Virus record (IMG/VR): IMGVR_UViG_3300029719_000311
Span: 1 to 31,209 of that record
DNA length: 31,209 bases
Direction: 5' to 3' (one strand)
Source: a virus
Taxonomy: Duplodnaviria; Heunggongvirae; Uroviricota; Caudoviricetes
Of this stretch, positions 17,025-31,209 are shown piece after piece; within the stretch, counting starts at the first letter, position 1, and the number at the start of each line of letters is the position of its first letter. The notes below the pieces were generated by a model. The model searched no databases and had not been told where the DNA came from. It was given only the letters and a program-made list of their open reading frames with translations. Both the position numbers and the translations under genes were made by a program.

Positions 17025-20000
17025 ATGGAACCCATATCAATTACAGTGGCAACTTATGTAGCAACTAAACTTATTGATCAATTCATCTCTCAAGAAGGAT
17101 ATGGTTGTATTAAGAAAGCATTATTCCCCCAAAAAAGATATGTGGATAGATTATATCAACTAATTGAAGAGACGGCAATTGAGTTTGAAGAAACATATCC
17201 AGTAGAAAGTGGAGCAATACCATTTTATCATTCCGAACCATTGTTTGAGATGTTGAATGAGCACATCTTTTTTAAAGAGTTCCCTGACAAAGAGATATTA
17301 TTAGACAAGTTCAAAGAATATCCAAGTATCACTCCCCCAACTCAACAACAACTCAGCCTTTTTTATGAGATGTTATCATTAAAAATCAATAATTGTTCGA
17401 AGTTAAAAAAGCTACATATCGAAGAAACGTATAAAGAAAAAATATTCGATATTAATGAAGAGCTCATTCAAGTCAAACTTATTTTACGGTCTATAGATGA
17501 GAAACTAACTTTTCACTTAAGTGATGATTGGTTAAATGAAAAAAATAGTCAAGCAATAGCTGACTTGGGAGGTCGATACACACCCGAACTCAACGTAAAG
17601 CTAGAAATAGCAGAGATATTTGATGGCCTCGGTAGAACTAATGATTTTTCTAAAATATTTTATTCGCATATAGATAGCTTTCTGGTCGCTGGAAAGAAAT
17701 TACATAGTTGCGATGTAATTTCCTCAGAATTATTTGAAATAAACCAGTCCTTAAAAGAAATTTCTGATATATATCAGGAGATTAATTTTTCTAAATTAGA
17801 TGAAATCCCTATAAATAAATTTAATAACTATGTTTCTAGCTGCCAGACAGCTATTGGCGGAGCGGTATCAATATTGTGGGAACTCCGAGAAAAGTCAGAG
17901 CAAGTAGGTGAAACCAAGCATTACAGTGATAAGTATTCATCTACTCTGCGAATGCTTCGGGAATTTGACTATGCGTGCAATGAATTACGTATATTCATTA
18001 ATTCAACAACAGTGAAGTTGGCTAACAACCCATTCTTACTTCTCGAAGGAAAAGCAGGAATTGGTAAGTCTCATTTACTGGCTGATGTGATTAAAAATCG
18101 AATTGCTTCTGGGTATCCTTCACTACTCATACTAGGGCAACAACTTACTTCAGATGAATCTCCATGGTCACAAATCTTCAAGAGATTACAGCTTAAAATC
18201 ACTTCTCGTGAATTCCTAGAAAAACTGAATTTATATGGCAAAAAAACAGGAAAAAGAGTCTTAGTTTTTATTGATGCTATTAATGAAGGTAATGGAAATA
18301 AATTCTGGAATGACAATATTAACAGTTTTGTCGATGAAATCAGATGCTTTGAATGGCTTGGTCTGATAATGTCAGTCAGAACAACATATAGAAATGTAAC
18401 AATTTCACATGAGAATGTTGTGCGAAATAATTTTGAAATTCATGAACATATTGGATTCCAGAACGTTGAGTTGGAAGCGGTTAGTCTATTTTATGATTAT
18501 TACAATATTGAGAGGCCTTCATCTCCTAACCTTAATCCAGAGTTTAAAAATCCTCTATTTCTTAAGTTATTGTGTGAAGGCATTAAGAAAAATGGTTTAA
18601 CCAAAGTGCCTGTTGGATTTAATGGGATTTCAAATATTTTTAACTTTTTAGTTGAAGGGGTAAATAAATCATTAGCATCGCCAAGAAAATATGCATTCGA
18701 TCCCAGTTTTCCTCTTGTTAAAGATGCTCTCAATGAAATCATAAAATTCAAATTAGAGATTGGTCGTAATAGTATTTCACTTAAAGATGCTCACTCAGTG
18801 GTTCAATCTGTAGTTAATGATTATGTTGCTGATAAAACCTTCCTCAGCGCCTTGATTGACGAAGGATTATTGACTAAAGGCATAGTGAGAAATGATGATA
18901 ATTCTACTGAGGAAGTAGTTTATGTGGCTTTTGAAAGGTTTGATGATCATTTAACTGTTAATTTTTTATTAAATGATGTTGAAAATATCGAAAGTGAATT
19001 TAAGCCTGATGGTCGTCTGAAAAAATATTTTCATGATGAATGTGATTTTTATATAAAATCGGGAATAGTAGAGGCGTTGTCTATTCAATTGCCAGAAAGG
19101 TATGAAAAAGAGCTTTATGAATTTCTGCCGGAGTTCAGCAATAATCTTAAATTACTAGAAGCCTTTATTGATAGCTTGATATGGCGCGATATTAAGGCTA
19201 TTGATTTCGAAAAAATTAGACCTTTCATCAATGAACATGTTTTTAAATTTAAAGATAGTTTTGATCATTTCCTCGAGGCAGTGATCTCTATTTCAGGTTT
19301 AGTTGGCCATCCCTTTAATGCTAATTTCTTGCATGATTGGCTAAAAGATTATTCTTTGGCAAATCGAGATTCGTTTTGGACTACAGAACTTAAATATAAA
19401 TATAGTGAAGACTCAGCATTTAGGCATCTAATCGATTGGGCATGGGCCAGAACAGATAAAAGCTTTGTTTCGGATGAGTCAATCGAGCTAGTTGCAACTA
19501 GTTTATGCTGGTTTTTAACTTCTAGTAACCGAGAACTTCGAGATTGCTCAACTAAGGCTTTAGTGAGTTTACTCGAGCCAAGAATTCCTGTATTGAGAAA
19601 AATAATTGATAAGTTTTATGGTGTAAATGATCCTTACGTTTGGGAAAGAATATTTGCAGTTGCATTAGGCTGTACATTGCGAACTGATAATATTAAAGAA
19701 CTAAAATATTTAGCCGAAACTGTTTACCAAAAGGTATTTTGTTCTAAGTATGTGTATCCAAATATATTACTTAGAGATTATGCTAGAGAGATTATTGAAT
19801 TTGCTAATCATCTTGGATTGGAACTTGAAAGCATTGAATTATCCAAGACTAGACCACCCTACAACAGCATTTGGCCTGACAAGATTCCTTCAAAAGAGGA
19901 ACTAGAGTCCCTTTATGATAAAGAACCTTATCGGGAACTCTGGAGCTCTATTATGGAAGATGGTGACTTTTCACGATATACTATTGGAACAAATTATAAT

Positions 20001-21479
20001 CATTCTGATTGGTCTGGTTGCAAGTTTAATGAAACCCCTGTTGACCGTAAGCAAGTTTTTAAAACTTTCAAATGTAAACTAACTGATCAACAAAAAGACT
20101 TGTATGATGCCACAGATCCTTTCATTTATGATGATAAATGCGAAGGAATTAAATTTGGTCGTGTGGTCGGTAGAAAATCACAGGAAGAAATAAAGGCGAG
20201 CAAGAAATTATTTAAGAATTCATTGTCATACGATCTGTTAAGTGAGTTTGAAAATGAAATAGAGCCATACCTGGATCATAATAATAATCTGCTGGAAACT
20301 GATAAACACTTTGATCTTCGACTAGCTCAACAATTTATATTCAATCGTGTTATAGAGCTTGGTTGGGATCCGGAGAAGCATGGTAATTTTGACCAACAAA
20401 TAGGAACTGGACGTGGACGTAGAGAGGCATTCCAAGAACGGATTGGTAAAAAATACCAATGGATTGCTTATTATGAATACATGGCAAGGCTAGCCGATAA
20501 TTTTACTCGTTTTGAAGGTTATGGTGACGAACGAAAGGAAAATCCATACCAAGGGCCATGGGAGCCTTACGTAAGAGATATAGATCCCACTATCTTACTT
20601 AAAGAAACTGGAACGAAAAAAATAAGCAATAAAGAAATGTGGTGGCTTAATGATGAAGTGTTTGATTGGACTTGCTCTAATGAAGACTGGGTTAAAAGTT
20701 CTACTACTATAACTAATTCATATGCTTTTATTGAAGTTAAAGATGATAATGGTGATGAATGGATAGTATTAGAAAGTCATCCATCATGGAAAGAACCAAA
20801 AATTATTGGAAACGATGATTGGGGGCACCCACGAAAAGAGGTTTGGTATCAGATCAGAAGTTATATCGTTAAAGTTGAAGAATTTGAAAATTTTAGATGT
20901 TGGGCAATAGCTCAAGACTTTATGGGCAGGTGGATGCCGGAATGTACTGATAGATACCAATTATTTAATAGGGAGTACTATTGGTCCGAAGCATTTAAGT
21001 CTTTTAAATCAGATTATTATGGTGGATCTGACTGGACTTCGGTAACAGACCGGGAGTCTGGAGCTAAGATAGCTGATGTTAGTGTCACTTCGATTAATTA
21101 TTTGTGGGAAGAGGAGTTCGACAAATCAAAAATAGAAACTTTGAATTTTTTGAAGCCTAGTAACTTAATCTTTGAAAAGATGGGATTAAAAAGTGGGGAA
21201 GTAGAGGGTAGCTTCAATGATGAAAATGGAACTATGGTTTGCTTTGCAGCTGAAGCTGTATATGCTTCAAAGCCGCATCTACTTGTTAAAAAAGAACCAT
21301 TTTTAACAATGTTAAGGGACAATGGTTTTGAAATCGTTTGGACATTATTAGGTGAAAAGGGCGTTATAGGGGGCTCACTCATATCAAGTCATCATTATGG
21401 TCGACAGGAGTTTAGTGGAGCATTTTATTATGAAGACAGTCAGCTAACAGGAAGTCATAAAACTAGCTTTACGAGATAA
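17025..21479 (+). CDS. Large P-loop NTPase with NACHT/STAND-like motifs (1484 aa); candidate antiphage defence protein
   Basis: Walker A GKAGIGKS (18048..18071), Walker B VLVFIDAINEG (18258..18290), downstream IMSVRTT sensor-1-like motif; about 330-aa N-terminal and about 1050-aa C-terminal helical extensions; low GC versus neighbours; located between tfa and attR. Confidence 0.6.
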   Translation: MEPISITVATYVATKLIDQFISQEGYGCIKKALFPQKRYVDRLYQLIEETAIEFEETYPVESGAIPFYHSEPLFEMLNEHIFFKEFPDKEILLDKFKEYPSITPPTQQQLSLFYEMLSLKINNCSKLKKLHIEETYKEKIFDINEELIQVKLILRSIDEKLTFHLSDDWLNEKNSQAIADLGGRYTPELNVKLEIAEIFDGLGRTNDFSKIFYSHIDSFLVAGKKLHSCDVISSELFEINQSLKEISDIYQEINFSKLDEIPINKFNNYVSSCQTAIGGAVSILWELREKSEQVGETKHYSDKYSSTLRMLREFDYACNELRIFINSTTVKLANNPFLLLEGKAGIGKSHLLADVIKNRIASGYPSLLILGQQLTSDESPWSQIFKRLQLKITSREFLEKLNLYGKKTGKRVLVFIDAINEGNGNKFWNDNINSFVDEIRCFEWLGLIMSVRTTYRNVTISHENVVRNNFEIHEHIGFQNVELEAVSLFYDYYNIERPSSPNLNPEFKNPLFLKLLCEGIKKNGLTKVPVGFNGISNIFNFLVEGVNKSLASPRKYAFDPSFPLVKDALNEIIKFKLEIGRNSISLKDAHSVVQSVVNDYVADKTFLSALIDEGLLTKGIVRNDDNSTEEVVYVAFERFDDHLTVNFLLNDVENIESEFKPDGRLKKYFHDECDFYIKSGIVEALSIQLPERYEKELYEFLPEFSNNLKLLEAFIDSLIWRDIKAIDFEKIRPFINEHVFKFKDSFDHFLEAVISISGLVGHPFNANFLHDWLKDYSLANRDSFWTTELKYKYSEDSAFRHLIDWAWARTDKSFVSDESIELVATSLCWFLTSSNRELRDCSTKALVSLLEPRIPVLRKIIDKFYGVNDPYVWERIFAVALGCTLRTDNIKELKYLAETVYQKVFCSKYVYPNILLRDYAREIIEFANHLGLELESIELSKTRPPYNSIWPDKIPSKEELESLYDKEPYRELWSSIMEDGDFSRYTIGTNYNHSDWSGCKFNETPVDRKQVFKTFKCKLTDQQKDLYDATDPFIYDDKCEGIKFGRVVGRKSQEEIKASKKLFKNSLSYDLLSEFENEIEPYLDHNNNLLETDKHFDLRLAQQFIFNRVIELGWDPEKHGNFDQQIGTGRGRREAFQERIGKKYQWIAYYEYMARLADNFTRFEGYGDERKENPYQGPWEPYVRDIDPTILLKETGTKKISNKEMWWLNDEVFDWTCSNEDWVKSSTTITNSYAFIEVKDDNGDEWIVLESHPSWKEPKIIGNDDWGHPRKEVWYQIRSYIVKVEEFENFRCWAIAQDFMGRWMPECTDRYQLFNREYYWSEAFKSFKSDYYGGSDWTSVTDRESGAKIADVSVTSINYLWEEEFDKSKIETLNFLKPSNLIFEKMGLKSGEVEGSFNDENGTMVCFAAEAVYASKPHLLVKKEPFLTMLRDNGFEIVWTLLGEKGVIGGSLISSHHYGRQEFSGAFYYEDSQLTGSHKTSFTR

Positions 21480-21862
21480 AAATGAATCTCAGAGCTGAAT
21501 ATATAAGTAGTATTAGAAACCGGGTTATACTTAAGAAATCAATCTTAAGTGTGGCAGTCGAATGGTAGCTAATATGCTAGCGGCGCTAATGCCTGTTTGT
21601 TGCTCATAACAGGCATTCACTTTAGTTATGGCAGAAAAGTATACATGCTGGGTTGGGAAAGTGTGAAAGAAAGGAAGATTGCTGCGCCGTTTGTCGTCAC
21701 GTTTATCTTCATTGGCTATGCAAGTCGTAATAAAAGGTGGGACAAAACTGAGACACATAAAGCCTCGCAATGGCTTGCAAGGCTTTACATGTTTTGATGT
21801 GGTGGGACGTGTGAGCGCAGTGTTGATGGGGTAATGCTTTGAATTAGAAGCGGATTCTTATA

Positions 21863-21909
21863 ATTCGTAATGCGAAGGTCGTAGGTTCGACTCCTATTAT
21901 CGGCACCAT
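21863..21909. repeat. att core, right copy (attR of element 1 / attL of element 2)
   Basis: 47 bp identical to 1399..1445 (partial thrW 3' end ATTCGTAATGCGAAGGTCGTAGGTTCGACTCCTATTATCGGCACCAT). Confidence 0.9.
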
Positions 21910-22072
21910 CACCTAGTTTTCCCAAGTCAACCCACATCAACAAAATCATTTAAAAACATATATATTACGTTGTTTTCATACGTTTGAGGTCAACCCTTGT
22001 CTCTTGAAATCAACACGCGGTTGGGGGCACAATCAGGGGCATGTTCTGTTCGATCTAGGAAATGTGCCCCCA

Positions 22073-23263
22073 ATGATGCTGAATGCCCGCAAGGTTGAAG
22101 CTGCGAAAGGAAAAGAGAAGAGCTACAAGCTGTTTGATGGAGGTGGCCTATACCTTCAGGTCGAACCTAATGGCTCGCGTTACTGGCGTATGAAATACCG
22201 TTTTGCTGGTAAAGAGAAACGATTGTCCTTTGGTGTTTATCCAACAGTCACACTTGCTGATGCCAGACAAAAACGAGAAGACGCGAAGAAACTACTCGCA
22301 GCAGGTGAAGATCCCGGCGAAGTCAAAAAAGCCAAAAAGCAGGCTTTAAATGCAGCGAGTGAGACACTTAACCCATTCAGAGAAGTGGCGTTAGAGTGGC
22401 ACAAAATGAAATCACCCAAATGGTCTGAGGGCTATGCTTCCGACATCATTGAGGCATTCGAGAAAGACATTTTCCCGCATATTGGGCACAGACCTATAGC
22501 TGATATTCAGCCCCTTGAACTGCTTGAAGTTCTGAGGTTGATAGAAGCTCGAGGCGCTATGGAGAAAGCGAAGAAAGTCCGTCAGCGATGCGGTGAAGTT
22601 TTTCGCTATGCCATCGTAACGGGTAGGGCAATCTACAATCCGGCACCGGATCTTGCCAGTGCGATGCAAGGACATGAAGCAGTCCACTATCCATTCCTCA
22701 AAGCCAACGAACTACCGGAGTTCTTTAATGCCCTTAATTCTTATTCAGGAAGTCCAATTGTATTGTTGGGGGCGCATTTACTTATCCTGACAGGTCTACG
22801 AACTGGAGAACTACGAGCAGGTGAGTGGCGAGAGGTGGATTTTGATAATGCGGTGTGGGAGATCCCAAAAGAACGTATGAAAATGCGTAGGAGCCATATT
22901 GTCCCGTTGTCAAAACAAGCATTATCCCATCTCAAAAGTTTGAAAGAACTAACTGGGAACTACCCGCTGATGTTCCCTGGACGCAACGATCCCAGCAAAT
23001 TTATGAGTGAAGCAAGCATTAATCAGGTGTTTAAACGTATTGGATATGCAGGGCGTGTTACGGGGCATGGTTTCAGGCATACGATGAGTACAATCCTACA
23101 TGAGAAAGGATTTAACAGCGCTTGGATTGAAACCCAGCTTGCTCATTCGGACAAAAACTCTATTCGTGGAATTTATAACCATGCCCAATATCTCGAAGGG
23201 AGAAGAGAAATGATGCAATGGTATGCTAATTATTTATCTGAGCAAATTGGTACTCATAAATGA
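22073..23263 (+). CDS. Tyrosine integrase, P4-type
   Basis: ...KEKSYKLFDGGGLYLQVEPNGSRYWRMKYRFAGKEKRLSFGVYPTVTLADARQKREDAKKLL... N-terminal arm-binding pattern of P4-family integrases; C-terminal ...GHGFRHTMSTILHE... catalytic region; true start probably ATG at 22073/22076 rather than ORF start 22004. Confidence 0.9.
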   Translation: MMLNARKVEAAKGKEKSYKLFDGGGLYLQVEPNGSRYWRMKYRFAGKEKRLSFGVYPTVTLADARQKREDAKKLLAAGEDPGEVKKAKKQALNAASETLNPFREVALEWHKMKSPKWSEGYASDIIEAFEKDIFPHIGHRPIADIQPLELLEVLRLIEARGAMEKAKKVRQRCGEVFRYAIVTGRAIYNPAPDLASAMQGHEAVHYPFLKANELPEFFNALNSYSGSPIVLLGAHLLILTGLRTGELRAGEWREVDFDNAVWEIPKERMKMRRSHIVPLSKQALSHLKSLKELTGNYPLMFPGRNDPSKFMSEASINQVFKRIGYAGRVTGHGFRHTMSTILHEKGFNSAWIETQLAHSDKNSIRGIYNHAQYLEGRREMMQWYANYLSEQIGTHK

Positions 23264-24084
23264 ATATTTTAAAAATTAATAATACTGATTCTCTGCTCAG
23301 AGATTACTACCAGTTGGATGAAGCTTCAGAAAAAATTGGTTGTAGTGAAAAGGATATACTCTGGTTTGCCAGAGAACGAGATGTAGAGCTATGCATGGAA
23401 TTCCATGATGATGAGTATGATGTTTCATGTGGTTTGAAGATTGATGGTCAAATAGATGAGTTCTTATCTAATCTGAAATATTTACCACGAGATAGAAATG
23501 GCAATATTATGTTGTCAGACTTAAGTTCTATAAGAATCCCTGATGAAGATAATTTAATTGATAAAAATGGTTTTATTCGATGCTTCATATCCGGTTTATG
23601 GGCTGTTGATTATGAATATAAAGATCTGTTAGTTAAGCATGAGGGGCAACCGGATTCCTGGCCTATTCATTTTCTACTGGCGGGTACGCCTAATATAAAT
23701 TGTAAGGTAATTCTTTATGTAAATTATGATGAAAAAGAAAATTATTATCTTTTTGAGGTTTTGTGGATTACAAAGGTACAGATTCAAAAATTCATTGATA
23801 TAGTCTTATGCGAACAAAAGCGGATAAAAAACGCCAATAAATATAAATCACAATCTGAGGCGCAAAAACAAAAACATGCTGTTCCTCGAGCTGAAATACT
23901 CATGGCTATTATTTCGCTCTATCATCGTGATATGAGGCTAAGAAGAGAGAGTCCAGCAGCGATAGCTGATTATCTTTTTCAACATGCCAGTGAGTTCTGG
24001 CCTAAGACCGGAGAACCGCCTTTGAGCTATGATACTGTTGTTAGTTTGCTACGTAGTTGCATGAAAAACATTAAGTTTAACTAA
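23260..24084 (+). CDS. Hypothetical low-GC cargo protein (274 aa), translationally coupled to integrase
   Basis: ATGA overlap with int stop; strongly AT-rich relative to int; no recognisable motifs. Confidence 0.5.
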   Translation: MNILKINNTDSLLRDYYQLDEASEKIGCSEKDILWFARERDVELCMEFHDDEYDVSCGLKIDGQIDEFLSNLKYLPRDRNGNIMLSDLSSIRIPDEDNLIDKNGFIRCFISGLWAVDYEYKDLLVKHEGQPDSWPIHFLLAGTPNINCKVILYVNYDEKENYYLFEVLWITKVQIQKFIDIVLCEQKRIKNANKYKSQSEAQKQKHAVPRAEILMAIISLYHRDMRLRRESPAAIADYLFQHASEFWPKTGEPPLSYDTVVSLLRSCMKNIKFN

Positions 24085-24209
24085 ATATTAACAATTGTTG
24101 TGGCTAATGATTTTGAATTTTTTTCATTAGTCACATTTTTCTCATTTATAACCTATGTTTTAATTTTCCGTGTTGAAGCCAATAGACTTAGATAAACGGA
24201 GAATGATGA

Positions 24210-24500
24210 ATGTTATCTAAACATGATAATACTACTTTGCAACGACCTTCAATGGATTCTCTGATCGATATGAAGTTTATTACTTCCGATTGTTTATTAA
24301 GTGATAAATGGATTTATCGATTGATTTCTCTGAATCGCTTTCCAAAACCTATAAAAATAGGTCGGATGTCACGATGGCGCGCTGCTGATTATTATAAGTG
24401 GCGAGATGGGTTTGAAGAAAACTCAGGTCAACAGTTTGAGGGGATGAGAAATAAGGCAAGAGCAATTAATAAAGGGAATAGATTATCACCTACTCCCTAA
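24210..24500 (+). CDS. AlpA-family phage regulatory protein (Vis/excisionase-like)
   Basis: ...LISLNRFPKPIKIGRMSRWRAADYYKWRDGF... fits the AlpA pattern (FPKP.K.G..S.W); GGAGA RBS 8 nt upstream. Confidence 0.55.
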   Translation: MLSKHDNTTLQRPSMDSLIDMKFITSDCLLSDKWIYRLISLNRFPKPIKIGRMSRWRAADYYKWRDGFEENSGQQFEGMRNKARAINKGNRLSPTP

Positions 24501-24706
24501 GCCTTAATTGATAGTTAGTAATATTTAACTGATTAGCCTTTAGGGTCAATCCCGCGTGATTGGAGTTCTTTGCGTAAAATTCTTTTAATCCAAGTTGCCA
24601 ACGCGCTATCTCCATCTTTGCGCATTTCGTTTTCGAGTTGCAACCTAAAATCGTCGGTAAGACGCATTTGGAATGGTGGAGAACGTTTCTCTTGTGGTGT
24701 TGACAT
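24491..24706 (-). CDS. Putative Arc/Mnt-like ribbon-helix-helix regulator (71 aa); not in the supplied ORF track
   Basis: Hand-translated minus-strand ORF MSTPQEKRSPPFQMRLTDDFRLQLENEMRKDGDSALATWIKRILRKEL...; PPFQMRLTDD resembles the Arc N-terminal beta-strand; start codon lies within one of two GGTAATTACC palindromes. Confidence 0.4.
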
Positions 24707-24746
24707 GGTAATTACCCTAGAATATGATGACTACATGGTAATTACC
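24707..24746. promoter_or_regulatory. Two 10-bp palindromes GGTAATTACC spaced 30 bp apart (candidate operators)
   Basis: CATGGTAATTACC repeated at 24704..24716 and 24734..24746, overlapping the RHH gene start. Confidence 0.4.
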
Positions 24747-24837
24747 ATTGTAAGTATAGTTCGCTTGTAAAAGCAATGCCCGATTGTGCGGGAACACAAA
24801 TCGGGCATTTAACCAACCGTTATAAGAGGTAACGAAG

Positions 24838-25014
24838 ATGGCTAAACAGAAGTGTACCTGGTTATTTGCGGCGATCAACCGCAGTCAACGCAATGCCCGT
24901 CCTGTGATGTTAAGGATCACCGCAGATAACGAGCGGTCAGCGCGGCGCAGACTTGCCCCGGACTATGTACTGAGCTTTGCCGGGCGCATTCCCTGCGGAG
25001 GTGAACATGCGTAA
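24838..25014 (+). CDS. Small protein (58 aa), Icd-like position in a P4-like element
   Basis: Hand-translated MAKQKCTWLFAAINRSQRNARPVMLRITADNERSARRRLAPDYVLSFAGRIPCGGEHA; AAGAGG RBS; overlaps the next gene start by 8 nt. Confidence 0.4.
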   Translation: MAKQKCTWLFAAINRSQRNARPVMLRITADNERSARRRLAPDYVLSFAGRIPCGGEHA

Positions 25015-25366
25015 TTATCCGCATCCCGGCGAACGCTGGCAGCATGAACGTGGCTGGACGGTCACGATTATCCGATTAATAGAAGCCTCGCCCTCTGTGG
25101 CGCTGGTTAATCCTGAATTCAGCTGTGAAGTGCTGATACGTCATGACAGCGACAACCAGCTTTCTTCCTGCCCTCTGGCATGGTTTGAACAGCGATATAC
25201 GCGCCTGTTTGATGTACCGCTCTTTAAGCCTGCACCAGCTCCTGCAGGCGGTAGTGGTTCCGGCCCGCTGACACTGCATCCGTCTGTGCTATTTATCCGC
25301 TGGCGGGAGCGTAGCATATGGCGTTCTGCTGAGCCTGATGACGGTCACTATTCAAAGTTTCTCTGA
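25007..25366 (+). CDS. Hypothetical protein (119 aa)
   Basis: ATG preceded by GGAGG at 6-nt spacing; GC-rich; function unknown. Confidence 0.45.
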   Translation: MRNYPHPGERWQHERGWTVTIIRLIEASPSVALVNPEFSCEVLIRHDSDNQLSSCPLAWFEQRYTRLFDVPLFKPAPAPAGGSGSGPLTLHPSVLFIRWRERSIWRSAEPDDGHYSKFL

Positions 25367-25602
25367 CACAATACCGCTGAAAACGGAGTAATCCACGATG
25401 AATATTTCAAACGGGCACAACGGTGCTCAGGGCCACACTTTGCCTGAAAAACACAATACCTGCTGCCCTCCACTGATGGCAAACTCCAGACAACCATTCG
25501 CCCGCCAGAGATGAATCCCCGCAGGCTCTATGTCTTCAACAGCGAGGTGCCGGGTTAAGGCTTTGCGTGAGTCTTATTTATTAAGGGTAACAGGTGAAAC
25601 AG

Positions 25603-25780
25603 GTGGAACAACCGTATTTTACAGGGCTGAACCTGTTCCACCTTCTGAAATAGTGAGGTGGAACAGATGTAACGCCAGCCAATCCGCTGTTCCACCTTGT
25701 TACCCGCGATGTTTCACCGGTGCAGTGTATATAAATGTCTTATAAAACAAAGCTGTAACACATGTTTCACCTGTTCCACC
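25603..25780. repeat. Iteron cluster TGTT(C/T)CACC in both orientations (P4 ori/crr-like)
   Basis: About 8 copies (25603, 25612, 25633, 25657, 25688, 25710, 25763, 25772) flanking an AT-rich core; P4 ori/crr use TGTTCACC octamers bound by the alpha primase. Confidence 0.55.
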
Positions 25781-25868
25781 GCATCAGGGACATAAAGCAG
25801 ACTGAAACAGAGGGCATTTTTATCTGGCTGGCTTTCATAGCCACGTCTGAATAACCGCAAGCGCCCGT

Positions 25869-25924
25869 TGTGCCAGCCACCACACACTGAACACCGATAG
25901 TGTGCTTGTGTCAGCCACGACACA
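25869..25924 (+). promoter_or_regulatory. Candidate Ogr/Delta-activated late promoter (two TGT-N12-ACA dyads)
   Basis: TGTGCCAGCCACCACACA at 25869..25886 and TGTGTCAGCCACGACACA at 25907..25924, 35-90 bp upstream of the sid-like ATG. Confidence 0.4.
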
Positions 25925-25958
25925 ATTGACGTAACGAACCAACCCGACAGGAGAAGTC

Positions 25959-26702
25959 ATGAACAATACCGCAGTAAATAACAACCTTTCCACTTTTCCG
26001 GCTGTAACGCAGCGGGCACTGGAAACCATGAACACAGCCAGAAACGCATGGCTTGAAGCACGTCGTCAGCAGAAAGCGGCAGCGGATAATATTGCGACAA
26101 TCCGCCAGCGTCGCGCTGAAATGGAAGCCACGACGAACACACTGAATGAGGAGTGGCGCACGCTGTTTCGTGAAAGTCAGGGCGTGGTCTCAAAGGAAAT
26201 GAAAAAACTGCGCACGGAAATTGCGCTGGGACGAGAAACGCTTGAGGATTTTGATGAGCTGCTGGCGGCTCAGGAAAGCGAAAATGCACTTTTGCCGCAG
26301 AAAGCTGCAGAATTAGCCGGAAAGTATATCCACGCGCATAACATTCTTGTGGATATTCGCGCAAAACAAATCTGGGAGGATTTTATGCAGTCGCATGGAA
26401 AAGCGCTTATTCAGACGCTGAGCCTGCTTAAATCCACAATGGGCCGGGAAGCCAGTGCCGTTGTGGGTGTGGTGAATTCAGTTAATGACCCGGACACAGT
26501 GCTGAAAGACTTTATTCATAAACATATCACCAGACCGGCTCTGGCTAACGATGCGATGCCTGAGCAGGACCCGGTGTTTAAACTGGCGGGAGTTGCCCCG
26601 GATTATGCGGCGCGTCTGGATTTCAGTAATCAACTCTCTCCGGCAGCTATGCATAAAATTAAGGTTCGTCAGGAACTTGCTGAGAAGGAGAAAGCAGTAT
26701 GA
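25959..26702 (+). CDS. Sid-like capsid size determination protein (247 aa)
   Basis: Helical 247-aa protein (P4 Sid is 244 aa), first gene of the operon ending in an ogr/delta gene; AGGAG RBS. Confidence 0.5.
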   Translation: MNNTAVNNNLSTFPAVTQRALETMNTARNAWLEARRQQKAAADNIATIRQRRAEMEATTNTLNEEWRTLFRESQGVVSKEMKKLRTEIALGRETLEDFDELLAAQESENALLPQKAAELAGKYIHAHNILVDIRAKQIWEDFMQSHGKALIQTLSLLKSTMGREASAVVGVVNSVNDPDTVLKDFIHKHITRPALANDAMPEQDPVFKLAGVAPDYAARLDFSNQLSPAAMHKIKVRQELAEKEKAV

Positions 26703-27250
26703 CGGCCCGAGGCACGCCTGACCAGGCACTTACCAGTTTTCGGAATGCCCGCATTCTGTGGGCCGGACATAATGAGAGCCGAAAAGCCGTTGAACAACAG
26801 ATAACATCTCTCCTCGCTGCCACAGAAAAACCAGCAGATTATGCCCGACAGCTCGAATTACTGCGGGAACGTCTGGATGTGCTGAAATGGCAAATTAACT
26901 GTGCTGCGCGCGAATGCATTTACTCGCAGCATTTACTGATGGAGGCCTGCACAGAAGCCGCTCTCAGCAATTTTATGCAGGCGAATGGGGCAGCCCTGAC
27001 ATCTGCACTGGCTCCGTTCCTGAAGGGGCGCGGAGGGGTTGACGTTGCGTCCCGTATATTACGCAGTGCTCTGGTTCGCCAGCTGGCAATAACACCGCCT
27101 GAAATTGCTGGGGATTATCGTGAGATCCTGGATGAATCCGGTTTGATGCCTGACCCCGGGATGATTCGTGATTGCCAGGGTTCTTACACCCCGGCACAAC
27201 ATCTGCGTTTTCAGCAACGCCTGAATGACATTAACGATATACAGGAGTGA
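26699..27250 (+). CDS. Psu-like polarity suppression protein (183 aa)
   Basis: ATGA coupling to sid-like gene; size and operon position match P4 psu (190 aa). Confidence 0.5.
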   Translation: MTARGTPDQALTSFRNARILWAGHNESRKAVEQQITSLLAATEKPADYARQLELLRERLDVLKWQINCAARECIYSQHLLMEACTEAALSNFMQANGAALTSALAPFLKGRGGVDVASRILRSALVRQLAITPPEIAGDYREILDESGLMPDPGMIRDCQGSYTPAQHLRFQQRLNDINDIQE

Positions 27251-27255
27251 TATTA

Positions 27256-27528
27256 ATGGCACTTAAATGTCCGGAATGCGGTACAGTTGCACACGCCAGA
27301 ACAGCAGCCTATGAAGCTCCGTCAGTTAAACGCTCGTGGTATCAGTGCCAGAATCTGGAATGTTCCTGCACATTTACGGCACTGGAGAGTGTGGATAAGA
27401 TAATCATGAAACCCCGGCGCAATGAACAGGAACCAGACAAATCACAACCCCCGGTAAAACAACAGCAAACGCTCAATCGCTATGGCTCCGCGTCAAAACT
27501 GTCAAGCCGTCAGCAGATTCCTGTCTGA
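27256..27528 (+). CDS. Ogr/Delta-family zinc-finger late transcription activator
   Basis: MALKCPECGTVAHARTAAYEAPSVKRSWYQCQNLECSCTFTALESV matches the Ogr pattern C-P-x-C-x4-HART...Y-x-C-Q-N-x-x-C-S-x-T-F; start at ATG after AGGAG rather than track GTG at 27247. Confidence 0.85.
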   Translation: MALKCPECGTVAHARTAAYEAPSVKRSWYQCQNLECSCTFTALESVDKIIMKPRRNEQEPDKSQPPVKQQQTLNRYGSASKLSSRQQIPV

Positions 27529-27549
27529 TTAGAAAAAAACGCCCACGTA

Positions 27550-27575
27550 ATCCCGGTCGAGTACCGGGATTTTTA
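27550..27575 (+). terminator. Rho-independent terminator after the delta gene
   Basis: ATCCCGGT-CGAGT-ACCGGGAT hairpin followed by TTTT. Confidence 0.6.
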
Positions 27576-27863
27576 ACACCTTTTCCCTGGCTGGCCTGAG
27601 AGCGTATGAGTGCATGTCTATGGCGCATGAAAATGCATGAGTCTTATGCACCCTTTTTGAGGCGAAAACCTTTGTGTGGTGGTATCTGAGACGATTTATG
27701 GCATGCATGAAAACCAGTCTGTTAAGCGAAGCGGGCAGGCGTGCGGGGCTGCCCGCGTAAGGGCGTTGAATGGTATAACTATGGCACGGTTACCGCATGT
27801 TTTGAGCTGTAATCGAAGTTATGAAAATTACTATATAAAGCGGTCGCTGTTGTGGAGATACGA

Positions 27864-27892
27864 TTGCGGGAAGTGATGGAAAGAGCTATAAA
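27864..27892 (+). promoter_or_regulatory. Candidate sigma70 promoter for the RT operon
   Basis: TTGCGG-N17-TATAAA about 30 bp upstream of the RT1 ATG. Confidence 0.3.
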
Positions 27893-27922
27893 AAGTACAG
27901 AGGATAGTTTAATGAGGGTATT

Positions 27923-29200
27923 ATGAACCGTCAGCCGTTTACTTCAGCAGCACTTAAACGAAACTTAAGTGAAAGTGAGAAGGCTTATTATTTTAAAAAA
28001 AATAATGTTGCTGAGTTAGAATCATTAATTAGTGATGCCGTTTTAATTGCTAATGAGAATTTTCGCTCTGGTGTGAGTGTAAAGAAACTAAATATTAAGG
28101 GACGCTGCGTTTACACTGCTTCATGTTTGAAGGAAAAAATAATACTTAGACATTGCAATGCAAATTTAAAATGCCTTGAATCGCTTCGTCCCAAACAACG
28201 AAATACAATAATTAGTGAGCTTAAAATTTATTTGGAAGAAGGTACTCCATTCAAAATATATCGTTTGGATATAAAGTCTTTCTTTGAATCAATTGATTTA
28301 CCGCAGCTTTTTCAGCTCTTACATAACGAAACACGACTGTCTAGACATACAAAAAATTTGCTAGAATGGTATCTTAAATCGTGTGAAAGGCTTCACTCTT
28401 CGAAAGGATTACCTAGAGGGTTAGAAATTAGTCCTATGTTATCAGAATTGTACTTGGCACAATTTGATAATAGTATTCATAGGCATCCAGAAGTATTTTA
28501 TTATTCAAGATTTGTAGATGATATGGTAATCGTTTCAAGTGGTTGTGAATGTGAAGCGTCCTTTATGGAATTTATACAAGATGTATTACCAAAGGGATTG
28601 GCTTTAAATAAAAATAAATTAAAAATATCTCCATGCATACCAAAGAGAAGTAAGGGTTTAAATAAACAGGATAAATTGCTTCATGAATTTGACTTTCTAG
28701 GGTACTCGTTTTCTATAATAGACACACCTTTGAGCAAAGATGGTGAGATTAATAGCTGTTACAGAAAGGTTGTTGTTAATTTATCTAAATCTCGCCTGAA
28801 GAAAATTAAAACAAGAATAGCTAGGTCTTTCTACTCTTATCATATTAATGGTGATTTTAAACTATTGCTAGACAGGATTTCTTTTTTGACTAGTAACAGG
28901 GATTTAAATCGCAAAATAAAATCGTTAAGTTCTTTAGAAAAAAGCAAGATAAGTACAGGTATTTATTACAGTAATGCGAAGTTAGATGTTGACTCCATAT
29001 CCCTAAAAAAATTAGATGACTTTTTGCTATATTGTGTGCAATCTAATACTGGGCGTTTGAATAGTGTTGCAAAAAAACCTTTTAATTTGAAGCAAAAAAA
29101 AGAACTGCTAAGAAATAGTTTTAGAAAAGGCTTTGTGGATAGAGTATATAGAAAGTATAACTTTAAGCGCTATACTGAGATTACAAAAATATGGTTATAA
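27923..29200 (+). CDS. Reverse transcriptase 1 (425 aa), defence-associated RT (UG/Abi-like; DRT3 component by inference)
   Basis: Canonical RT motifs: YRLDIKSFFESID (motif 2), LPRGLEISPMLSELYL (motif 4), FVDD catalytic box at 28511..28522 (motif 5), FDFLGYSF (motif 7); very low GC. Confidence 0.85.
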   Translation: MNRQPFTSAALKRNLSESEKAYYFKKNNVAELESLISDAVLIANENFRSGVSVKKLNIKGRCVYTASCLKEKIILRHCNANLKCLESLRPKQRNTIISELKIYLEEGTPFKIYRLDIKSFFESIDLPQLFQLLHNETRLSRHTKNLLEWYLKSCERLHSSKGLPRGLEISPMLSELYLAQFDNSIHRHPEVFYYSRFVDDMVIVSSGCECEASFMEFIQDVLPKGLALNKNKLKISPCIPKRSKGLNKQDKLLHEFDFLGYSFSIIDTPLSKDGEINSCYRKVVVNLSKSRLKKIKTRIARSFYSYHINGDFKLLLDRISFLTSNRDLNRKIKSLSSLEKSKISTGIYYSNAKLDVDSISLKKLDDFLLYCVQSNTGRLNSVAKKPFNLKQKKELLRNSFRKGFVDRVYRKYNFKRYTEITKIWL

Positions 29201-31209
29201 AGAAAAACATTAAACTTGATAAGAAAGATTATCTCAGGGCTTTACTATGTGATACACTGCCCGGTGATTGTCCAATTATTTTTTCAAATGATGGCTTATA
29301 TATAAACTTAACAGAATATGATAGAGTTTGTAATGATTTGTTACATTTTACTCCGGTTTCTTCTTTCTTAAAAAAAATAGTTAACCCTAATTTAGACTCT
29401 TCTATTAGTGTCGCAGATCGCCACCGAGAAAAGAAGAAACAAAGCTCCCCATTTGGCTATTGTATAGTAAAAGATGCCTTTAGCCAAAGACATCTTTCTT
29501 TAATTCACCCAAGATCTCAAATTAATTATTCGGAATTTTATAAAACATACTCATCCGTTATCACATTAAATACTTTAAAAAGTAATTTTTCTATTCGCTA
29601 CCCACGTAAGGTCGCTAACTCTTTCTTTTTATATGAAAATAATGCTTTGGAAAAATATAAAGGGGAAGATATCGAAACAACAAAGGATGAGTTAATGAGG
29701 AAATATTCATCCTCTTATTTTAGTTATGGCGGTTTCAACAGGATATATAAACTATTTCAAAGTAAGATGTTTATTGAGCTTGAGAAAAGATTCTCGGTGA
29801 TGTGGATGTTAGATGTATCACATTGTTTTGATAGCATATATACGCATTCGGTTTCTTGGGCATTAAAAAATAAATCATATATCAAAAAACATGTTAAACA
29901 CAGCAATCAATTTGGACAAGAATTAGATACACTGATGCAACGTAGCAATAATAATGAAACAAATGGAATACCTATTGGTTCAGAGTTTAGCAGGGTTTTT
30001 GCAGAATTAATATTTCAGCGAATTGATTGCAATATTGAGTCATGCCTTCTTAGTGAGCATGGATGGGTTAATAATAAAGATTATGTTATATTGAGATATG
30101 TAGATGATTTTATTGTTTTTTGTAATGGTGAGTCAAGTGCCGAAGTTATTACAAAAATAATTAATGTGAAGTTAAATGAATATAATCTACAATTAAATGT
30201 AAACAAGCTTAAGAAGTATTCTAGGCCATTTTGCACTAGCAAGACAAGTTTGATTGTCAAAGTTAATGAATTAATTCGCAATTTAGAAATTAAACTGTAT
30301 GAAAAACGTGATAGTGGCTTTACTTTAAATAAAATAAGAAGTAAGCATGATTTAAAGATATATGTAATTAATCATGTCAAGTCTATATGCATTGAAAATC
30401 AAGTGTCTTATTCTGATGTTTCATCATATATAATATCATCTCTTTCCAAAAGATTAATATCAATAATTGATATATTACGAGTTCAAGAAAATGAAGATGA
30501 TGTAGATGTAAAAAAAAGGATTAAGGACTTAATTTTCACAATAACCGATATTATGTTGTTCTTTTTCAGTGTTAACCCAACTGTTTCATCATCTTATAAA
30601 TTATCAAAAACAATGGTTGTTGTTAATAACTATTTGAATGAAATATCTAGTGACTATAGTAGTATTTTTATGACTACGTTAGTGAATGCTGCGGAAAACA
30701 TTAATTTTGGTGAGAATGATAATGGGCTGTTTATTGATGATTTCATTTCAATTGAAAAGGTTAATTTAATCTTGGCTGCTACTTTTTTTGGAGATAATTA
30801 TCTTATAAGTGACAGTTTTTTTCATGGAGTTATACATAAAAAGAAATTGGACTACTTTACTATAATCTCACTGCTATTCTATTTTAGAAACAGAAGATCA
30901 TTCCGAAAATTGAAGTGTATAATAGAGGGTGAAATAAAGGAAATATTAAGTTCTAATATGGATTTGCTGCAATCATCGGAAAAGGCACATTTATTTTTGG
31001 ATGTCATGTCATGTCCATTTGTCTCAATAGAGACAAGGCGTTTTTTATATAGAAAATATCTCAAGAGCTATGAGCCAAAGCTGAACAGAAGTCATCTGGA
31101 GATTGAGAATGATTTGCAATCTCTGCTTCAAATATATTGGTTTGTCAAGTGGGATGAGTTAGATATTGTGAAAATGATTGAGAAAAAAGAATTGAAAGAA
31201 AGCTATTAA
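29191..31209 (+). CDS. Reverse transcriptase 2 (672 aa) with long C-terminal extension (UG/Abi-like; DRT3 component by inference)
   Basis: MLDVSHCFDSIYTHSVSWAL (motif 2), NGIPIGSEFSRVFAELIF (motif 4), YVDD catalytic box at 30097..30108; overlaps RT1 by 10 nt; stop codon is the last triplet of the window. Confidence 0.85.
   Translation: MVIKKNIKLDKKDYLRALLCDTLPGDCPIIFSNDGLYINLTEYDRVCNDLLHFTPVSSFLKKIVNPNLDSSISVADRHREKKKQSSPFGYCIVKDAFSQRHLSLIHPRSQINYSEFYKTYSSVITLNTLKSNFSIRYPRKVANSFFLYENNALEKYKGEDIETTKDELMRKYSSSYFSYGGFNRIYKLFQSKMFIELEKRFSVMWMLDVSHCFDSIYTHSVSWALKNKSYIKKHVKHSNQFGQELDTLMQRSNNNETNGIPIGSEFSRVFAELIFQRIDCNIESCLLSEHGWVNNKDYVILRYVDDFIVFCNGESSAEVITKIINVKLNEYNLQLNVNKLKKYSRPFCTSKTSLIVKVNELIRNLEIKLYEKRDSGFTLNKIRSKHDLKIYVINHVKSICIENQVSYSDVSSYIISSLSKRLISIIDILRVQENEDDVDVKKRIKDLIFTITDIMLFFFSVNPTVSSSYKLSKTMVVVNNYLNEISSDYSSIFMTTLVNAAENINFGENDNGLFIDDFISIEKVNLILAATFFGDNYLISDSFFHGVIHKKKLDYFTIISLLFYFRNRRSFRKLKCIIEGEIKEILSSNMDLLQSSEKAHLFLDVMSCPFVSIETRRFLYRKYLKSYEPKLNRSHLEIENDLQSLLQIYWFVKWDELDIVKMIEKKELKESY

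Follow-up and report, generated by a model that had tools for sequence, protein, structure and literature searches.

The immI region of phage P22 comprises the ribbon-helix-helix (RHH) repressors Mnt and Arc, the promoters P_ant and P_mnt, and the sar antisense RNA. In plasmid pMV158, the antisense RNA RNAII acts on the gene repB. The same initiator gene is the target of the RHH repressor CopG in copy-number control of this plasmid (PMC2724298), and SymR/symE of E. coli K-12 corresponds to Rfam family RF01809 (Kawano, Aravind & Storz 2007, PMC1891008). These three systems are the closest designs to the locus described here, which lies at positions 24533-24878 of IMG/VR virus record IMGVR_UViG_3300029719_000311 (31,209 nucleotides, Caudoviricetes; this whole stretch is called the window hereafter). 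In the reading that we favour, the region is a compact regulatory cassette with three working parts, heading the early operon of a P4-like satellite in E. coli, an operon that runs from an Icd-like gene to a primase gene. It seems probable to us that a dimeric 57-residue RHH repressor at two operators, O1 and O2, shuts the early Icd-like/replication promoter and limits its own synthesis, and that a SymR-family antisense RNA blocks translation of escaped transcripts. Sequence analysis supports this on several counts: the gene is conserved in its coding and fits an Arc-like profile; the operators keep their position and co-vary with the protein; the promoter is conserved; the RNA shows covariation that points to one strand, and it resembles SymR; and the cassette is linked to primase operons.

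The putative repressor gene and the features that flank it are the following.

24533-24706, minus strand: RHH gene, 57 residues
24473..24498, minus strand: terminator-like hairpin with a T-run, 3′ of the RHH stop and between the convergent RHH and AlpA-like genes
24838-25014, plus strand: Icd-like gene, 58 residues, first gene of the rightward operon (NCBIfam NF033153, E 5.5e-24; RefSeq annotation)

The minus-strand open reading frame (ORF) has its ATG at 24706 (24704-24706) and its stop at 24533-24535; its 174 nt encode the 57-residue protein MSTPQEKRSPPFQMRLTDDFRLQLENEMRKDGDSALATWIKRILRKELQSRGIDPKG. A first-pass annotation of this DNA had proposed here an unlisted 71-residue minus-strand ORF ending at 24491, next to a divergent intergenic region. 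The strand and the divergent layout hold, the opposed gene being the Icd-like one that begins at 24838, but the length does not. The 71-residue reading needs a one-base frame slip into an overlapping minus-strand ORF (24490-24615), and the window sequence has no such slip. A database variant, P0085, does have 71 residues through a true frameshift, by which its N-terminal 25 residues are fused to the overlapping frame, and the identical length suggests that the earlier reading slipped frame in the same way. The gene was indeed absent from the ORF track used at that time, although in identical copies of the element RefSeq/PGAP lists it, under WP_001605077.1, as a hypothetical protein.

Of 5,426 complete E. 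coli genomes, 333 hold the cassette in a near-identical form; strains XJW9B277 and WCHEC025970 are two E. coli carriers of the element. When 5.8 billion proteins were searched, 85 relatives were retrieved, nearly all of 57 residues, from Escherichia, Citrobacter, Pantoea, Erwinia, Salmonella, Yersinia, Xenorhabdus, Photorhabdus, Gilliamella, Pasteurella and other hosts, and the family spans Enterobacterales, Pasteurellaceae and Gilliamella. Among 22 equal-length orthologs, pairwise differences at codon positions 1, 2 and 3 number 2862, 1461 and 6616, and the ratio of nonsynonymous to synonymous substitution rates (dN/dS), 0.06 to 0.2, indicates purifying selection. By these measures the 57-residue ORF is a real, conserved gene.

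Profile comparisons bear out the Arc-like N terminus noticed in the first-pass annotation. PHROG 228 ('Arc-like repressor') is matched by each of the 38 family members tested, the best at E 2.2e-7 and the window protein at 3.2e-3, and the family also matches the Arc-like PHROGs 582, 7906 and 3178. Distant relatives reached with the family profile match Pfam Arc (2.5e-24), RHH_1, RHH_5, HicB, ParD_like and FitA-like_RHH. An exhaustive profile search gave just 44 representatives; thus, the family is small. By sequence-profile similarity the protein belongs to the RHH superfamily, and on this evidence it is an Arc-like RHH protein and a putative repressor. By the curated cut-off, the window protein is not a member of Pfam Arc (PF03869).

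The AlphaFold2 monomer model (predicted local distance difference test score, 73) has coil or extended chain at residues 1-17 and helices at residues 18-31 and 33-50. D31 and G32 are invariant in the family and D33 is nearly so; with S34 next in the window protein, a D-G-D-S turn falls between the helices. The modelled strand-helix-turn-helix topology fits the RHH pattern. That the N-terminal strand is not called beta in the monomer model is expected, since such a strand pairs only in the dimer. An hhalign alignment with a single Arc sequence, of only 24% probability and used for register alone, places residues 8-35 on Arc 6-33 and residues 11, 13 and 15 over the base-contacting Q9, N11 and R13 of Arc.

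Some sources call homologs 'HicB family', and family members cross-match PHROGs whose annotation is partition protein or HicB-like antitoxin. We nevertheless give next to no chance to a role as the RHH antitoxin of a type II toxin-antitoxin pair or as a partition (centromere-binding) protein. The RHH gene has no co-transcribed partner, and its downstream neighbour, the AlpA-like gene, is convergent and lies beyond the terminator-like hairpin, because of which the RHH gene is predicted to be monocistronic. Furthermore, the element holds no ParA-like gene, and the sites proposed for the protein lie on a promoter core. An antitoxin or partition role was rejected for want of a partner gene.

The proposed sites of the protein and the promoter on which they lie are as follows.

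24707..24716: O1, putative proximal operator, GGTAATTACC, adjoining the RHH start codon and lying in the -35/-10 spacer of P_R
24735..24748: O2, putative distal operator, 14-nt palindrome ATGGTAATTACCAT with core 24737-24746, lying over the predicted start sites of P_R and P_L
24700..24728, plus strand: P_R, rightward early promoter, -35 TTGACA (24700-24705), 17-nt spacer, -10 TATGAT (24723-24728)

As noticed earlier, two identical 10-bp palindromes, GGTAATTACC, stand 30 bp apart, at 24707-24716 and 24737-24746. Both fall within a 14-nt direct repeat, ACATGGTAATTACC, at 24703-24716 and 24733-24746. The start codon had been placed within one palindrome; more exactly, it adjoins the proximal palindrome and lies inside the 14-nt repeat. 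The 31-kb window has exact copies of the palindrome at these two positions only, and 0.64 sites with at most one mismatch would be expected by chance. For the 14-mer, likewise, the two known sites are the only ones with 0-1 mismatch. At up to three mismatches the window has five sites against 1.7 expected, and no convincing further operator copy was found. One of the weak sites, ATGAAAATTACTAT at 27821-27834 (3 mismatches), lies ~90 bp upstream of drt3a and is within chance expectation.

The two sites were compared across 63 related loci, all read in one orientation. In nearly all of them O1 occupies positions -10..-1 relative to the start codon, with a lineage-specific sequence, and O2 keeps its position 30-35 bp from O1. 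Many loci combine a perfect O1 with an O2 that has 1-2 deviating bases, which fits graded occupancy. The operator sequence varies with the predicted DNA-reading ribbon of the protein in the following pairs.

RSP(P/Q)(F/Y)QMRL: operator GGTAATTACC
RSPQFPMRL: operator GGTATATACC
KTDQYQ(I/L)RL, and Pasteurellaceae variants without Pro10: operator TGTAATTACA
GNPPFQFRL: GTGTAATTACAC-like operator

The change Q13P, at a predicted base-contacting position, accompanies a central-base change from AATT to ATAT. Where Pro10 is lost, an outer G becomes T, even in a locus that retains Met14 (L041). Such protein-operator co-variation is the mark left when a repressor and its operator co-evolve. Conserved position and co-varying sequence support the view that the twin palindromes behave like operators of the 57-residue protein. 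In five loci with GGTA...TACC-type operators (L012, L016, L017, L022 and L033), a third palindrome of the other type, TGTAATTACA, stands at about -52 from the RHH start. It adjoins the distal operator and overlaps the candidate P_L -10; it may be there by chance, or may record an exchange of operator types.

Palindromes are commonplace at promoters, and binding of this protein to them is an inference. Another factor, namely the AlpA-like protein or a helper-phage or host protein, could bind them, the role of the small protein being unrelated. We consider this very unlikely. The palindrome sequence shifts with the predicted DNA-reading residues of the protein, and the site is welded to the gene at its start codon. 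Besides, in EcCICFT073 a different small protein goes with different repeats in the same geometry.

P_R matches the promoter consensus at 11 of 12 positions, with a start predicted at ~24735 by consensus scan. It is directed at the Icd-like gene and, in intact relatives, also at the primase operon. Its -35 overlaps the RHH ATG (ATGTCAA on the opposite strand), and the two palindromes bracket its -10: O1 fills the spacer and O2 starts at the predicted +1. Of 37 unique loci, 32 have a -35 TTGACA at this same place, and in 31 the best promoter there scores 9-11 of 12. A candidate promoter of the RHH gene faces P_R.

24747..24776, minus strand: P_L, candidate RHH-gene promoter, -10 TACAAT (24752->24747), 18-nt spacer, weak -35 TTGCTT (24776->24771)

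The -10 of P_L adjoins O2, and its predicted start is ~24740. In most loci a TAnAAT-type hexamer ends 41-42 nt before the RHH ATG, with TTG(C/T)TT 16-18 nt upstream. A simple promoter scan gave no leftward promoter above its threshold, and P_L comes from this separate hexamer analysis. P_L may thus be a weak leftward promoter facing P_R, with start sites ~5 bp apart. Autoregulation is expected because O2 also covers the predicted P_L start and the two promoters stand face-to-face. The first-pass annotation had seen an autoregulated repressor switch here. Its conserved gene and operator-like palindromes stand, but the geometry points first to repression of P_R, and autoregulation comes second.

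The layout can be set against P22 immI. In both, a small RHH repressor gene is divergent from a strong promoter, which it is predicted here to repress through a start-site operator; in both, opposed promoters overlap, so that repression of one favours the other; and in both, a short cis-antisense RNA, here a predicted one, lies over the ribosome-binding site of the controlled gene. In contrast to P22, one protein here faces two palindromes 30 bp apart, whereas P22 has two repressors with adjacent operators. The controlled gene of P22 is an antirepressor, and here it is a satellite Icd-like/primase operon. Orthology is not detectable, Arc and Mnt not being found by the family profile; P22 Mnt also has a C-terminal tetramerisation domain, which the 57-residue protein lacks. 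The likeness to pMV158 lies in two levels of control over a replication gene: an RHH repressor acts on its promoter and an antisense RNA on the start of its translation, as is predicted here too. However, copG is co-transcribed with repB, whereas the repressor gene here is divergent; the binding site of CopG is a single 13-bp pseudo-palindrome, and the protein spreads along the DNA; and the antisense RNAs are unrelated.

The antisense RNA and its promoter are predicted at these positions.

24767..24843, minus strand: candidate SymR-family cis-antisense RNA, ~77 nt, covering the Shine-Dalgarno sequence and ATG of the Icd-like gene
24851..24878, minus strand: P_as, promoter of the antisense RNA, -35 TTGATC (24878->24873), 16-nt spacer, -10 TACACT (24856->24851)

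The predicted RNA begins with AGCCAU, the complement of Icd-like codons 1-2. Its hairpin 1 (24817-24835) holds in its loop CCUC, an anti-Shine-Dalgarno to the GAGG at 24826-24829 of the Icd-like gene. Hairpin 2 (24775-24809) consists of an 11-nt perfect inverted repeat, AATGCCCGATT/AATCGGGCATT, with arms at 24775-24785 and 24799-24809 as previously reported, and GCUUUU (24769-24774) follows it. The minimum free energy of the window RNA is -28.5 kcal/mol (z -5.05). Rfam symR matches 24772-24843 of the minus strand over its full length (31.6 bits, E 0.0074). The relatives match it at 26.7-42.1 bits, all full-length (1-77), and these scores stay under the gathering threshold of 61 bits, so that the RNAs fall outside curated Rfam membership. 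In the reverse direction, a covariance model built from satellites only (R1) matches the annotated symR of E. coli K-12 at 36.8 bits (E 3.6e-7), again over the full length and with the same 5′ end.

A consensus fold was derived from 32 non-redundant aligned leaders (RNAalifold, pair counts). It has a closing helix GCCA/UGGU, hairpin 1, and the long hairpin 2 with a U-tract. In 95.8% of cells the bases pair, and at 12 pairs both sides have changed in a compensatory way. None of 500 shuffles reaches any observed pairing measure, and slid controls are 34-54% paired. In the inverted-repeat hairpin 10 of 13 pairs have compensatory changes, the sequence itself not being conserved. G·U and A·C pairs number 90 and 9, respectively, on the minus strand, and this excess indicates that the structure is selected in a minus-strand RNA rather than in the sense leader. 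P_as sits within Icd-like codons 5-14. A TAnnnT hexamer stands exactly 7 nt before AGCCAT in 35 of 35 unique contexts, despite differing first genes, and loci with a poor P_as -35 have a TGn extended -10. On covariation and strand asymmetry, the inverted repeat is the terminator hairpin of the predicted SymR-family antisense RNA from the minus strand.

This bears on two other explanations of the repeat. The predicted P_R transcript has a ~100-nt leader that includes the hairpin, which could work in the sense RNA as a stability or processing element or as an attenuator, with no antisense RNA; Watson-Crick compensatory changes alone cannot distinguish the strands. We hold this to be decidedly unlikely, since each G·U pair of the minus strand would leave the sense RNA with a mismatch, only on the minus strand is the stem followed by the U-tract, the -10 is fixed 7 nt before the 5′ end with TGn compensating for a poor -35, and the matches to SymR, a known 77-nt antisense RNA, are reciprocal and full-length (PMC1891008). 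In the first-pass annotation the repeat was part of a protein-binding, divergent-promoter switch, as a further operator. A perfect, intergenic inverted repeat does invite that reading, which is nonetheless highly improbable: it is the pairing that is kept and not the sequence, the strand asymmetry, U-tract and covariance-model matches all indicate an RNA terminator hairpin, and the repeat lies ~40-75 bp downstream of the P_R start and not on the promoter.

The predicted RNA resembles SymR in several respects. Like annotated symR (2836-2912 in our K-12 locus L066, where symE ends at 2841), it is a ~77-nt cis-antisense RNA over the 5′ end of an ORF, with its promoter within the target ORF. In both RNAs the 5′ end complements codons 2 and 1 (AGUCAU in SymR, AGCCAU here), and both have two hairpins and a common inner GUGUU...GCAC motif. 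The covariance-model matches between them run in both directions. A repressor-controlled promoter lies just upstream in each case, with a LexA-box-like CTGTATATATCATCAG at symE and the RHH operators here. As read from the sequence, this LexA-box-like element comes just after the SymR terminator (L066 2836-2960), in the place of the RHH operators of the satellites. Its position, together with the model match to genuine SymR, hints that symER derives from a satellite-type cassette. The systems differ in that the target is here an Icd-like gene, and in relatives another small protein or a primase, and not the AbrB-fold SymE; the setting is here a mobile satellite and for SymR a chromosomal restriction-modification island.

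A primase-helicase gene lies downstream of P_R in five of six diverse loci tested, with Zn-ribbon/Toprim/DUF927 or D5_N/DUF5906 domains. In Xenorhabdus the first gene after P_R is an 812-residue primase. In the 15.3-kb Pasteurella element Pmp8, which has capsid, portal, terminase and primase genes, the same protein is divergent from an Icd-like-to-primase operon. By the gene content of these loci, the cassette heads primase operons in P4-like satellites and in those of the phage-inducible chromosomal island (PICI) type. EcCICFT073, the archetype of Gram-negative PICIs (E. coli CFT073; L068, NC_004431 1379525-1383995), has the same layout, with an integrase and an AlpA-like gene followed by different parts. 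Its opposite-strand protein, encoded by C_RS30120, has 59 residues and belongs to the YlcI/YnfO family (phrog_949, which 10 of the 38 family members match as well). Its promoter, TTGACG-18-TATAGT, carries twin GTGGGCCACACCT repeats, one in the spacer and one at the start; then come a SymR-like RNA (49.9 bits), an Icd-like gene and the primase. A second 57-residue minus-strand ORF of unknown function (phrog_21027) adjoins the cassette there.

We propose that the 57-residue protein would dimerise, by analogy with the Arc-like RHH family, and that its two-stranded beta-ribbon (residues ~10-16, PPFQMRL) would insert into each 10-14-bp palindrome. Occupancy of O1 in the spacer and O2 at +1 would block RNA polymerase at P_R and so silence the Icd-like/replication operon. 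When occupancy is low, the site filled would be O1, which is usually perfect, and P_L would be freed from competition by P_R. At high occupancy O2, often degenerate, would be filled too, and the repressor would stop its own synthesis at P_L. Meanwhile, a constitutive ~77-nt SymR-family RNA, made from the promoter inside the Icd-like ORF and ending at the inverted-repeat hairpin, would pair with the ribosome-binding site and start codon of an escaped P_R transcript and form a post-transcriptional lock. DNA binding, repression, autoregulation and antisense action are all inferred in this scheme, as is the role of maintenance repressor.

In the most serious rival to this maintenance role, the protein would act only as a minor modulator or, as P22 Arc does, for transient shut-off, and quiescence would be set by other means, such as helper AlpA-type activation or silencing by the host. 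The AlpA-like gene next door and the weakness of P_L speak for it. We think it unlikely, since the gene is divergent from P_R and monocistronic, which is the layout of Mnt or CI and not that of Arc, inside the controlled operon; moreover, the operators lie on the P_R core and the cassette is kept at primase operons of several satellite families.

Several results weigh against the account of a maintenance repressor with an antisense lock. The window protein has zero Pfam or NCBIfam matches, even at E <= 1. From the PDB sequences, Arc and Mnt were not recovered by the family profile, the best RHH entry being AmrZ at E 0.54; the other PDB sequence matches (designed helical repeats, SEC31) are compositional, concern the helix-turn-helix part and were not taken as homology. 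Fold searches with the monomer model returned no RHH structure and were uninformative. The low probability of the Arc alignment and the sub-threshold symR scores belong here as well. The protein-operator co-variation amounts to perhaps three or four independent changes among lineages, with phylogeny as a confounder. P_L matches the consensus weakly (8 of 12), and no clear Shine-Dalgarno sequence precedes the RHH ATG; for these two reasons the mode of RHH-gene expression is uncertain and the weakest part of the account. Finally, the switch may be idle in this copy because its primase has been lost.

The loss concerns the satellite that surrounds the cassette. Pfam, NCBIfam and the RefSeq annotation of relatives identify it as P4-like, which agrees with the satellite setting suggested earlier. 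The remaining genes are the following.

22004-23263: integrase
23260-24084: 274-residue ORF of unknown function
24210-24500: AlpA-like gene
24977-25366: 129-residue ORF
25959-26702: sid-like gene
26699-27250: psu (Pfam Psu, E 1.8e-9)
27247-27528: delta
27923 onwards: Drt3a/Drt3b

The features of a P4-like satellite, namely integrase, AlpA-like, sid, psu, delta and alpha primase, are all present, the primase being seen in the intact relative. In RefSeq that relative has an integrase, a helix-turn-helix regulator, a polarity suppression protein, ogr/Delta and a TOPRIM/DUF927 primase. The AlpA-like protein reaches 20.6 bits against Pfam Phage_AlpA, just below the cut-off of 21. PHROGs names it excisionase/regulator, and its RefSeq name is only 'helix-turn-helix transcriptional regulator'. 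Compared with intact relatives that are otherwise ~99.5-100% identical, 3,168 bp are missing from this copy. The deletion junction is at 25456-25460, with 5 bp common to both edges, and the missing stretch is equivalent to L001 15362-18529. With it went the last part of a small gene, a DUF5375 gene and almost the whole TOPRIM/DUF927 primase. E. coli MLI105 aligns to the window unbroken, consistent with the same deletion. This satellite copy is probably replication-defective.

The Drt3a/Drt3b defence reverse-transcriptase pair stands directly 3′ of delta, the expected place of the P4-type defence hotspot, and the window ends within drt3b. On the other side, the satellite integrase comes straight after lambdoid prophage tail genes (gpJ, lom and tail fibre, per the annotation of the relative). 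Before it, at 17025-21479, lies a 1,484-residue ORF of unknown function. In the relative L001, a shorter form of this ORF and an integrase pseudogene occupy that place.

The element is P4-like in its integrase, AlpA-like, sid-like, psu and delta genes. However, its control appears to combine a protein with a cis-antisense RNA, whereas P4 immunity uses a processed sense-strand RNA. A P4 CI/C4-type RNA was sought and found neither in the window nor in the intact relative: C4 and isrK gave no match at E <= 1 in window positions 21500-31209 or in that relative, and the same search finds both in the related locus L037. A tblastn search of a phage collection matched 4 records only, P4 not among them. 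With P1 immI (c4 RNA-icd-ant) the element shares an Icd-like first early gene. In L037, from Pasteurella testudinis, C4 (65.6 bits) and isrK (60.7 bits) both exceed threshold at 2507-2736, downstream of the same cassette; there, the cassette would thus head a P1 immI-like region. The long predicted 'first ORF' of L037 is probably not coding. The Gram-positive PICIs, including the Staphylococcus aureus pathogenicity islands (SaPIs), have the master repressors Stl and Rpr (PMC6092414). As in those islands, the repressor gene here is divergent from the satellite excision/replication operon. Unlike the 57-residue RHH protein, Stl and Rpr are large helix-turn-helix proteins.

In the open-access literature, we found no RHH/Arc repressor and no such cassette described for P4-like satellites or PICIs, an absence that is not proof. 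The family, its place in satellites and the link to SymR appear new. The parts of the cassette are conventional and it is an ordinary kind of switch, overturning no known principle. To our knowledge, among P4-like satellites only the RNA-based immunity of P4 itself is understood. The 2018 paper that defined Gram-negative PICIs states that no global repressor had been identified for them (PMC6092414). The cassette is a concrete, testable candidate for the missing repressor of Gram-negative satellites, and it is also present in the tractable EcCICFT073 as another protein/operator allele. The SymR antitoxin RNA gains a wider family and a plausible origin in mobile elements. Furthermore, Q13P with AATT to ATAT, and residue 10 with the outer G to T, make a small natural specificity series for RHH engineering. 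It is possible, if doubtful, that the cassette is a general maintenance/immunity switch of Gram-negative satellites, including many P4-like satellites, those like the capsid-forming PICIs (cf-PICIs), and classical PICIs such as EcCICFT073. If so, interchangeable specificity alleles would define 'immunity groups' of satellites, and chromosomal SymR/symE would be a domesticated offshoot of the satellite module, with LexA in place of the RHH repressor.

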